A stretch of 64,000 bases of DNA from sequence record MN655999. One strand, given 5' to 3'. Each line of letters starts with the position of its first letter. Position 1 is the first letter of the stretch. Made by a program: the position numbers and the translations under genes. This stretch comes from Shigella phage Z31. Below, piece by piece: positions 19,038 to 48,682 of this stretch. Under the pieces are notes generated by a model, which was not told where the DNA came from, ran no database searches, and was given only the letters and a program-made list of their open reading frames with translations.

Positions 19038-19042
19038 AAGTT

Positions 19043-19071
19043 GTTGACATAGAAAATTTGGTGAGTATACT
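19043..19071 (+). promoter_or_regulatory. sigma70-type promoter TTGACA-16-TATACT
   Basis: Consensus -35, 16-bp spacer, near-consensus -10 directly after ligase stop. Confidence 0.6.
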
Positions 19072-19101
19072 GAGCAGCATAAACCAACGGGTACTCACCA
19101 G

Positions 19102-19260
19102 CATCACTTAAGAGTCTTCTAAGAGGGTTTTTAAGTGATGTTCGGTATGGTGCGGTAGTGTTTGGTTGGGTATGGCTTTGTATGGTCTGGTAATGTAGGG
19201 TCGGGCGCGGTATGGGTGGATGGTAGTAGCCACGTTAAAAATCTACCAAGTTTCTAAAGA
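19102..19260 (+). repeat. repeat unit A: 10-bp-stem hairpin (CATCACTTAA...TTAAGTGATG) followed by GT-rich tract of GGTNTGG-like motifs
   Basis: Same hairpin and GT-rich tract recur at 20390-20930. Confidence 0.65.
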
Positions 19261-19305
19261 GTCTTCTGTTGAGGGTTCTTTACAAACAACTTAACAATAA
19301 ACTAA

Positions 19306-19911
<606 letters not shown>

Positions 19912-19913
19912 TT

Positions 19914-20354
19914 ATGAATACAAAAGCATTAGCAGCAAAGTTTAGTTACGGTGACACTGTATCACATTCTGAGATGGATACCTTCTTAGGTATTGTGAAG
20001 CCAACTTATCAAGGTGACATTGTTAAGTACGAAGATGAAATGAAGGCTTATGCACTTACACGTCTAAACCGACTTGAGAAGTTTATTGAGAAGCTTCTTA
20101 AAGAAGAGAAGATTTATCTGGTTGCTTCAATGGGTGTTGGCTATCGTGTGGTTGAACCTAAGCATCAAGCAACTATTGCAAAACGTAAAATGTCTGGTAA
20201 GATTGGTCGTGCTTTAAAGCAAGCCACTCAAGCGATTGAGAATGTGAACACTATGGCACTTAGTCATCAAGAACGTTCACGACTGATTGAACAGCAAAAC
20301 CATTTAGCTGCTATGAAAGCTAACATTAACAAGCAACGTAGAAAACCTTTCTAA
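19914..20354 (+). CDS. hypothetical protein
   Basis: ORF track 146 aa. Confidence 0.5.
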   Translation: MNTKALAAKFSYGDTVSHSEMDTFLGIVKPTYQGDIVKYEDEMKAYALTRLNRLEKFIEKLLKEEKIYLVASMGVGYRVVEPKHQATIAKRKMSGKIGRALKQATQAIENVNTMALSHQERSRLIEQQNHLAAMKANINKQRRKPF

Positions 20355-20364
20355 GTTGACTAGG

Positions 20365-20392
20365 TAGCCTCTTCGGAGGCTCCTTTTTAAAA
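20365..20392 (+). terminator. rho-independent terminator (AGCCTC-TTCG-GAGGCT + TTTTT)
   Basis: Perfect hairpin and T-run immediately after 19914..20354. Confidence 0.6.
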
Positions 20393-20930
20393 GGTCTTTA
20401 AACATGGTCTTTTAATAAGGTTGGGTCTGGTGTGGTAAGGTTGGGTAAGGTGCGGTTTGGCGTGGTTTTGTCTGGTGCGGTCTGGTATGGGTAGTTAATC
20501 GGAGCTACATTAAAATTCGATTACATCACTTAAGAGTCTTCTAAGAGGATTTTTAAGTGATGTATTGTGATGTATTGTTCGGTATGGTAAGGCAAGGCTA
20601 GGTCTGGTGTGGGTAGTTAGTCTCATCTACATTAAAATGAGACTCATCTTTTTAAAAGGTCTTTAAACAGGGTTTTTAATAAGGTGATGAGAAGTGGTGT
20701 TAGGTTTGGTGTGGTTCTGTGCGGTACGGTTAAGTAAGGTGAGGTATGGGTAGTTAATCGGAGCTACATTAAAATTCGATTACATCACTTAAGGGTCTTC
20801 TAAGAGGATTTTTAAGCGATGCTCGGTCGGGTTTGGTCGGGTTTGGTATGGTATGGTGTGGTAAGGTAGGGTTTGGTATGGAAGGATGGCAGTAGCCTTA
20901 TAAAAAATCTGCCAAATAAGCTATAAAATC
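20393..20930 (+). repeat. tandem complex repeats (~2.5 units of ~260 bp): GT-rich tracts plus two hairpin types
   Basis: Repeated blocks AAAGGTCTTTAAACA.GG.TTTTAATAAGGT, GGTNTGG runs, GTAGTTAATCGGAGCTACATTAAAATTCGATTACATCACTTAAG (20497 and 20757) and variant AGTCTCATCTACATTAAAATGAGACTCATC (20616). Confidence 0.7.
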
Positions 20931-20932
20931 TG

Positions 20933-20961
20933 TTGACAAGTCAGGTGTTATAGCCTATTTT
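20933..20961 (+). promoter_or_regulatory. candidate promoter TTGACA-17-TATTTT
   Basis: Consensus -35 with weak -10 upstream of 21006 gene. Confidence 0.35.
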
Positions 20962-21005
20962 TATACTCAACGTAATACAAAATTTAATATAACTTTGAGG
21001 TCATT

Positions 21006-21389
21006 ATGAAAAAGATTTTATTAGCTGCTGCAATGGTTATGGCAATGAATTTACCAGTCAATGCAACAGAACTTCCCAATGTGGACTTATCAGGTGTTCC
21101 AGAAGACACTTGCCAGATTGTAAAAGGTGTTGCGCTATCTAATGGTGAGTTGCTTAAACCAATCTCTGAAGAGTCTTTGACAGAGATGACTGACAAGGTA
21201 ACTGACTATCAGTACCGTGTTCTTGCAGAGTATTTCCTGCAATCTGCAAACATTAAAGAGAAGCACCATGACGATATTGATGCACAGGCTATGCTCAATC
21301 ATCGTATTCAGTTTAAAGAAGATTTGATGCAAAAAGCTATGTATGGTGTTGAGTATTTCTTAGAAAACAGAAGCTGCACAGGTATTTGA
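21006..21389 (+). CDS. secreted/periplasmic protein with signal peptide
   Basis: 127 aa; MKKILLAAAMVMAMNLPVNA signal peptide. Confidence 0.55.
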   Translation: MKKILLAAAMVMAMNLPVNATELPNVDLSGVPEDTCQIVKGVALSNGELLKPISEESLTEMTDKVTDYQYRVLAEYFLQSANIKEKHHDDIDAQAMLNHRIQFKEDLMQKAMYGVEYFLENRSCTGI

Positions 21390-48508: not shown

Positions 48509-48584
48509 TGGAGAATCCGAAGGGACTCGAACCCTTATAAACCTGTTTTGCAGACAGGCACATAGCCATTTCTGTCACGGATTC
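48509..48584 (-). tRNA. tRNA-Cys (anticodon GCA)
   Basis: Hand-folded cloverleaf: acceptor GAATCCG/CGGATTC, anticodon loop CTGCAAA, T-arm GGTTCGAGTCC, CCA encoded. Confidence 0.7.
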
Positions 48585-48588
48585 AAAT

Positions 48589-48681
48589 TGGAGGAAGATA
48601 CCAGACTTGAACTGGTACACCGATTTCTCAGCTACTGGCAGTTTAGCAAACTGCTCCCTTACCTTTTAGGGTTAATCTTCC
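48589..48681 (-). tRNA. tRNA-Ser (anticodon GCT), type II
   Basis: Acceptor GGAAGAT/ATCTTCC, anticodon loop TTGCTAA, long variable arm, T-arm CCAGTTCAAGTCTGG. Confidence 0.65.
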
Positions 48682-48682
48682 A

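Follow-up and report, generated by a model that had tools for sequence, protein, structure and literature searches.

Background

The closest described relative of the locus discussed here is the Viral Interference Programmable Repeat (VIPR) system, for which RNA-guided DNA targeting was first reported in a preprint dated 25 June 2026 (bioRxiv 10.64898/2026.04.26.720920). According to the available text of this preprint, Vipr is a small RAMP-like protein and the vrRNA consists of 9–16 YNNGG repeats, of which the NN bases read double-stranded DNA, one base being skipped per unit. In the SUSP1 clade the repeats are followed by an invariable 3′ tail of ~40 nt, for which a hairpin and a pseudoknot are predicted. 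The same text reports that SUSP1 carries one vrRNA upstream of the genes vipr and vap1 and three downstream, and that small-RNA sequencing detects these vrRNAs, which have a length of ~100 nt and co-purify with Vipr. For SUSP1, others have shown DNA targeting as well as repression of transcription, and the authors of the preprint proposed that VIPR is older than CRISPR (bioRxiv 10.64898/2026.04.26.720920). VIPR represents a phage-borne form of RNA-guided DNA recognition with a non-contiguous code.

The locus in phage Z31

The stretch of DNA analysed here (the window) comprises 64,000 nt of Shigella phage Z31 (MN655999), a Felixounavirus; all positions refer to it and, unless stated otherwise, the features are located on the + strand. 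The hairpins that drew attention to this region sit in a 652-bp non-coding gap (20355–21005) between two + strand ORFs, and a second non-coding gap with arrays is found two genes upstream (19038–19323). Across both gaps there are five arrays of 7–15 YNNGG (GGT-NN) pentamers, and a phase scan of all 64 kb showed that in-phase GGT-NN arrays are confined to 19124–19218 and 20394–20904. Besides the GGT tracts with their 5-nt period, the downstream gap is built from two short hairpins, a long hairpin and a 32-nt box.

Two genes separate the gaps. The first, vipr (19324–19911, within an ORF at 19309–19911), encodes a 195-aa RAMP-like protein that is predicted to bind vrRNA. Its product matched a single PDB entry, 36pp (“SUSP1 Vipr protein”), with an E-value of 5e-127 and 188 of 195 residues identical, which exceeds the 90% cut-off of the preprint for the SUSP1 clade; it belongs to phrog_4652, a family whose function is not known, and has no Pfam family. 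The second (19914–20354, 146 aa) shows 99.3% identity to the ORF located after vipr in phiSUSP1, and its assignment as the published vipr accessory gene vap1 rests on synteny with the locus of the preprint. A putative sigma-70-type promoter (TTGACA-16-TATACT, 19044–19071, 11/12 consensus), also found in SUSP1, precedes vrRNA1 and vipr-vap1, and a terminator scan identified a terminator-like hairpin of the intrinsic type with a T-run after vap1 (20366–20389). The order along the locus is promoter, vrRNA1, vipr, vap1 and vrRNA2 to vrRNA5. We consider it about 90% probable that a type II VIPR locus of the SUSP1 clade has its guide-RNA array in this region and that the hairpins here called A and B are the 3′ tails of its vrRNAs. 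The sequence-only reading, which had singled out these hairpins, made no link to the adjacent GGT-NN arrays or to the vipr gene, and it is these that define the element.

The tract of vrRNA1 comprises 15 YNNGG units (19141–19215), that of vrRNA2 14 units (20421–20490) and that of vrRNA5 12 units (20822–20881), while the 13 units of vrRNA4 (20685–20749) include several degenerate ones. The vrRNA3 tract (20578–20612) has seven good YNNGG units, which is under the published range of 9–16, preceded by four degenerate YNNTG units from ~20558 that overlap the 3′ arm of a type C hairpin (see below). An internal duplication of 259 bp is present in the window (20440–20619 versus 20699–20878), and vrRNA3 may be a decaying or truncated guide that originated from it. 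By analogy with the published system, the GGY bases of each vrRNA would be held by subunits of the small RAMP-like Vipr, and the hypervariable NN dinucleotides would read the double-stranded DNA of the target, skipping one base in each unit. Hairpins A and B would cap the pentamer tracts as invariable 3′ tails, a counterpart of the repeat handle of a crRNA.

Several other identities were considered for the tracts. A CRISPR array was rejected, as repeat finders reported 5-nt phased degenerate units and no repeat-spacer arrangement, there was no Rfam match, and no Cas families were found among the neighbouring ORFs; an Rfam search at a permissive threshold returned chance-level matches only. A run of RNA polymerase pause sites and a series of SD-like ribosome landing pads were dropped, given that NN is near random and only GGT is constrained, and a TRAP-like triplet-repeat site was dropped once the Vipr match appeared.

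As to the surroundings, the ORF directly 3′ of the array (21006–21389; 127 aa, phrog_4332) has a signal-peptide-like start, MKKILLAAAMVMAMNLPVNA, and a cluster of 26 tRNA genes is located on the − strand at 48509–53855, as is usual in Felix O1-like phages. In the records of phages wV8 (NC_012749) and nataliec (MN850611) vipr and vap1 are annotated as hypothetical proteins, and the vrRNA regions are in part labelled just “repeat_region” (“DR_4” in wV8). The repeats are not mentioned in the genome papers of Felix O1, wV8 and UAB_Phi87 or in the Bas63 PhageMaP preprint. With tails, tracts and vipr recognised, the locus can be annotated correctly in phage Z31.

Tail hairpins

Two stem variants around one shared loop had been reported from the sequence alone, and their arms are found where they had been placed. 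The first variant, type A, follows vrRNA2 (20489–20524, arms TAATCGGA / TTCGATTA) and, as a second copy, vrRNA4 (20748–20783). The other, type B, follows vrRNA3 (20611–20653), with the stem arms AGTCTCA / TGAGACT and, next to them, the T-run CATCTTTTT (20645–20653). All three share exactly the 11-mer CTACATTAAAA, starting at 20505, 20627 and 20764; it occurs three times in the 64 kb and nowhere else, compared to a chance expectation, by our own estimate, of ~0.03 occurrences on both strands. The two remaining vrRNAs end in tails of a different build: type D2 after vrRNA1 (19221–19248), a hairpin TGGTAG / CTACCA, and type D1 after vrRNA5 (20887–20914), a hairpin TGGCAG / CTGCCA, each with a 16-nt loop. 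Tails A, B and D are present in every related genome examined.

That part of the fixed sequence is CTAC, which is complementary to the invariant GTAG ending the repeat tract, suggests that the “loop” is probably not a free loop. The tail fold is most likely an H-type pseudoknot, whose exact pairing is a prediction that agrees with the available text of the preprint. In this model a first stem, S1, would pair the tract-end GTAG with the CTAC of the conserved loop, a second stem of 7–8 bp, S2, would exist in two compensatory versions, and the third loop would be the A-rich ATTAAAA, so that the elements follow each other as S1-5′, 1 nt, S2-5′, 1 nt, S1-3′, ATTAAAA, S2-3′. For the vrRNA2 tail this corresponds to S1 at 20491–20494 / 20505–20508, S2 at 20496–20503 / 20516–20523 and the A-rich loop at 20509–20515; for the vrRNA4 tail to S1 at 20750–20753 / 20764–20767 and S2 at 20755–20762 / 20775–20782; and for tail B to S1 at 20613–20616 / 20627–20630 and S2 at 20619–20625 / 20638–20644. 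Under the pseudoknot model the “loop” cannot change, because its CTAC is paired with GTAG.

To evaluate the stems, seventeen distinct A and B tails were aligned gap-free and pairs were counted against the pseudoknot structure. The stem differences had been claimed to be compensatory, and on this exact alignment they are: of the seven S2 pairs shared by both types four are invariant and three are altered on both sides (A-U to G-C, G-C to U-A and G.U to C-G). Within type A, pair 14/29 occurs in G.U, G-C and A-U forms, and pair 8/35 as U-A and U.G, the latter pair being unpaired in type B. Overall 94.6% of the alignment cells were paired, versus 23–40% when the 3′ partners were slid by 1–3 columns. 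In a shuffle control the number of pairs changed on both sides was reached in 440 of 500 shuffles and is not exceptional. The three double changes separate two paralogous tail types and correspond to about one event of divergence and a few minor ones. The S2 hairpins fold at a modest −5.6 and −8.1 kcal/mol (MFE). The conservation in other genomes on which the claim of a selected structure had been made to depend was also found, both tail types occurring in every relative, and a pattern with free stem sequence around the fixed motifs recovered two stem types in this phage group and no more.

S1 is invariant within types A and B, and its covariation comes solely from the differently built D tails, in which the equivalent helix has C-G in D1 and U-A in D2, a compensatory difference without mixed forms in any genome. 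Two further helices were tried and rejected: a second stem for the D tails (TAGC/GCTA) is found in D1 and is absent from D2, and the variants TCACC and TCATC do not retain the pairs by which the tail B stem could be extended outwards (GGTA/TACC). The tail hairpins as such are already known, as the preprint describes a tail with hairpin, pseudoknot and compensatory changes for the SUSP1 clade. What the present analysis adds to this in modest detail is a second compensatory tail variant and a pseudoknot model that would explain the fixed “loop”.

Flanking hairpins

A third hairpin, CATCACTTAA/TTAAGTGATG, had been said to recur three times within 20497–20800. Three copies do exist, but only one (arms at 20524–20562) lies fully within that interval; the copy at 20783–20821 overruns its end and has one mismatch, and that at 19102–19140 belongs to the other gap. 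This long hairpin, here called type C, reads CATCACTTAAG...TTAAGTGATG. Copy 1 (19101–19142) is located directly 5′ of the vrRNA1 tract and folds at −20.2 kcal/mol (z −6.0); copy 2 (20522–20564) forms 20 bp with G.U pairs (−24.1 kcal/mol, z −8.2); and copy 3 (20781–20821), with the mismatch in its 3′ arm (TTAAGCGATG), folds at −17.4 kcal/mol (z −5.9). Across 16 variants of type C 97% of the cells are paired, with too little variation for an informative shuffle control; the changes pass through G.U (G.U to A-U, G.U to G-C and U.G to U-A), and the apical pair shows one compensatory change.

The 32-nt box, AAAAGGTCTTTAAAC.GGGTCTTTTAATAAGG, also folds as a hairpin and is here called P-box. In a hand alignment it shares ~61% identity with the inner portion of hairpin C. 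One copy (AAAAGGTCTTTAAAC..GGTCTTTTAA) is located 5′ of vrRNA2 (20383–20420; −7.5 kcal/mol, z −2.5) and another at 20645–20686 (−11.0 kcal/mol, z −4.1). Tail D2 is followed by a hairpin of the same sequence family, AAAGAGTCTTC...GAGGGTTCTTT (19250–19287; −13.6 kcal/mol, z −2.7), and tail D1 by the last flank hairpin, AAATAAGCTATAA / TTATAGCCTATTT (20914–20961; −13.6 kcal/mol, z −4.4). The ORF 3′ of the array has its own sigma-70-type promoter (TTGACA at 20933) within this last hairpin. A resemblance of the P-box to a lambda-like nut site was set aside, its match to boxA being 9/13 positions by eye and without further support.

All five vrRNAs are thus flanked on both sides by a G.U-rich extended hairpin of one sequence family, and the recognition of this family is a further contribution of the present work. 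The hairpins might mark the points at which the ~100-nt vrRNAs are excised from a longer transcript: with approximately two turns of double-stranded RNA they could be substrates of host RNase III or of Vipr itself, and the cuts would set the vrRNA ends. The preprint, in its available text, does not mention leaders, precursors, processing or flank hairpins for type II (bioRxiv 10.64898/2026.04.26.720920), and in other VIPR types hammerhead ribozymes or staggered cleavage fill the role proposed here. Our tentative suggestion, possible and somewhat doubtful, is that type C, the P-box and the two terminal variants serve in type II VIPR arrays as a hitherto undescribed signal for processing.

An improbable alternative is that all these hairpins are mere transcription punctuation, i.e., intrinsic terminators or attenuators separating short transcription units, with the P-box as a promoter, and play no role as guide handles. 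Such an explanation would be in line with tail B, after which come first the T-run and next the box also found behind the vap1 terminator; this arrangement recurs in relatives. However, tail A lacks a T-run and is directly followed by hairpin C, the tail stems are AU-rich with loops of 10–12 nt (10–11 in tail B), and the terminator scan called the vap1 terminator alone. A plain terminator would also leave the CTAC/GTAG complementarity and the conserved A-rich loop unexplained, and the P-box has no acceptable sigma-70 match. For tail B a role as terminator could, moreover, coexist with one as guide handle.

Likely targets of the guides

If the tracts are guides of a type II VIPR system, their NN strings should be read against foreign DNA under the published 1-nt skip, and this rule was applied in a target search, the pattern of 12 vrRNA2 units amounting to 24 specified bases. 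This pattern had no match in IMG/VR and was found exactly in three metagenome contigs and one Citrobacter genome. All four matches are located in the same tape-measure gene, agree with vrRNA2 at 26/28 positions overall and place the skipped base on the wobble position. On one of the contigs matched by vrRNA2, vrRNA1 matches at 27/30 positions, again in frame and with the skipped base on the wobble position. In E. coli chromosomes, related integrative elements of ~11 kb match vrRNA2 at 25/28 and vrRNA1 at 24–25/30 positions, so that both guides match one family of integrative elements at 24–27 of 28–30 positions. Skip rules of 0, 2 and 3 gave at most ~21, self-matches of the arrays excepted. 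No convincing target was identified for vrRNA3, vrRNA4 and vrRNA5 in the sequences scanned, and no self-targets were found in the window or the loci scanned, where the arrays alone match themselves, under skip 3.

The E. coli target elements encode a recombinase along with baseplate and tape-measure proteins, and the ~11-kb island with these tail genes is, judging from the match pattern, the likely natural target of two phage Z31 guides. In strain C4 the island is inserted between tonB and yciI (L173, 5476–16741) and in strain 1EC213 inside a DUF72 gene (L174, 5512–17153), its content being a large serine recombinase, the baseplate and tape-measure proteins and small hypothetical ORFs. A 4.4-kb stretch of the element gave at least a partial BLAST match in 1,839 of 5,426 complete E. 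coli genomes, a count that overstates the frequency of the element: the query was never covered to 80%, transposase is the annotation of some of the matches, and plasmids account for 537 places. The non-coding region of the phage itself had no BLAST match among 5,426 E. coli genomes.

Two of the target elements also carry GGY-NN tracts of their own, with 12–13 units (L171, 5735–5795; L174, 15275–15340, in the 1EC213 island), located in long stretches without annotated genes. The available text of the preprint reports that the satellites targeted by SUSP1 encode vrRNAs (bioRxiv 10.64898/2026.04.26.720920), and these tracts agree with that report.

RNA or DNA structure

The hairpins had been presented as a selected structure, either of RNA or of a protein-recognised DNA cruciform. 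Selection and RNA hold; nothing was found in support of a cruciform. The hairpins contain G.U pairs (pair 14/29 of tail A and several in the 20-bp hairpin), which are C.A mismatches on the other strand, the changes among relatives go via G.U intermediates, and the homologous stretches of SUSP1 are, according to the available preprint text, the ~100-nt RNAs that co-purify with Vipr (bioRxiv 10.64898/2026.04.26.720920). On these grounds we conclude that the hairpins are an RNA structure under selection.

The same observations make it very improbable that the region works at the level of DNA, as a replication origin or packaging site with GGT-NN iterons and protein-recognised cruciforms. Dense short and inverted repeats in a long non-coding stretch near genes for ligase, thymidylate synthase and DHFR would be in line with such an element, as would the strong local GC skew (0.31) and the direct terminal repeats of ~600 bp known from Felixounavirus (608 bp in the UAB_Phi87 paper). 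However, pairing that depends on G.U works on one strand only, hypervariable NN positions are the opposite of iterons, in SUSP1 Vipr binds RNA that is expressed from the arrays, and the matches of the NN strings to foreign genes follow one specific skip rule. An origin with iterons or with R-loop priming was rejected on the hypervariable NN and the strand-specific G.U pairing, and a terminus or pac site was dropped, as no record places genome ends in this region.

Related loci

The 671 bases around the hairpins are 99.4% identical to Escherichia phage HK3, and comparable sequence is present in 230 phage records. In the relatives compared here (eighteen IMG/VR loci, wV8 and nataliec), the flanking proteins are 99–100% identical. 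The modules are shared among them but differ in number and order; there is free variation in the NN bases and in how many units a tract has, and the GGT phase is constant. The NN composition is near random, with up to ~3.3–3.4 of 4 bits in the most variable IMG/VR arrays. The idea that the repeats are selfish or neutral (cassettes of the T4 promoter/stem-loop type or MITEs, shuffled by recombination and without a function of their own) could draw on this difference in module order and copy number between near-identical phages and on the 259-bp duplication compared to most relatives, but can practically be dismissed, given that strict conservation of GGT phase and tail sequences contrasts with variation in the rest, that the arrays are tightly tied to one protein family across unrelated viruses, and that the target matches are specific.

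The association of guide arrays with Vipr extends beyond this phage group. IMG/VR was scanned for exact matches to seven in-phase GGT-NN units and, among the matches listed, many degenerate tracts were found in unrelated viral contigs, often as long tandem series. Homologues of Vipr (~170–210 aa) adjoin such tracts in at least 33 loci of unrelated viral contigs among these matches, and the tract is usually located just downstream of the homologue on the same strand. One contig (L146, 3210–4395) carries ~18 GGT-NN tracts in 1.2 kb, each ending in GGCAGTT, 3′ of a Vipr homologue, and very long series with short fixed linkers between the tracts are present in three others (L070, 2216–3406; L060, 3395–3843; L059, 3330–5318). 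The long series in these four contigs probably correspond to the “staggered” arrays or another type described in the preprint. Two loci (L162, 818–880; L073, 14891–14934) represent a Vipr clade whose N-terminal region is related; there the sequence after the tract contains a T-arm resembling that of a tRNA, AAGGTTCGATTCCTTGG, and acceptor-like pairing (CTCCC...GGGAG), which suggests a tRNA-like tail able to recruit tRNA-processing enzymes.

At least 32 of the IMG/VR matches to GGT-NN were set aside as not belonging to VIPR, as they are coding repeats inside putative replication-protein genes. These genes are ~330–360 aa long, with encoded repeats such as PNLTKPNHTKPN, and the tract is located on the strand opposite to the gene (L092, 4677–4717; L105, 12591–12626; L135, 2857–2897; and about 29 more). 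Such tracts may be origin iterons embedded in the gene.

Comparison with known systems

The type II VIPR locus of SUSP1 is matched by the window in most respects. Vipr is 96% identical and vap1 is next after vipr; the promoter, hairpin C, vrRNA1 and tail D2 are arranged alike upstream; and tails B and D1, the P-box and hairpin C are found downstream, with equal module order in a side-by-side display. The vrRNA2 guides share 27 of 28 NN bases, and the targets are of a like family, i.e., an integrative element with phage tail genes. The window differs from SUSP1 in having four downstream vrRNAs instead of three, the fourth being present because of the 259-bp duplication, and in its two type A tails, a stem variant that SUSP1 lacks. 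Its vrRNA3 is short and partly degenerate, and vrRNA1, 3, 4 and 5 have other NN strings.

Among the better-known systems, the crRNA of class 1 CRISPR, with its handle bound by Cas6/Cas5 and its spacer by the Cas7 backbone, resembles the vrRNA in combining a variable guide with a structured, conserved cap, in a guide lined by RAMP-fold subunits, and in the presence of several guides in tandem at one locus. In contrast, VIPR lacks both cas genes (cas1/cas2 included) and identical direct repeats that separate unique spacers, its guide is non-contiguous (2 of every 5 nt) and its target is read with a 1-nt skip, and the carrier of the locus described here is a virulent phage. With known H-type pseudoknots, such as frameshift-stimulating and preQ1-type ones, the predicted tail would share the order S1-5′, S2-5′, S1-3′, S2-3′, with loops 1 and 2 of 1 nt each and an A-rich third loop of 7 nt opposite the short S1; the resemblance would be one of topology only, the S1 of the tail being just 4 bp. 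Finally, the TRAP sites of the Bacillus trp leader, (G/U)AG triplets with 2–3-nt spacers, resemble the tracts in having a conserved triplet every 5 nt, free spacer bases between the triplets and repeated protein subunits. The difference lies in the spacers, which are uninformative in TRAP sites but constitute the information here, and in the protein, an 11-mer ring in the case of TRAP and a RAMP homologue here.
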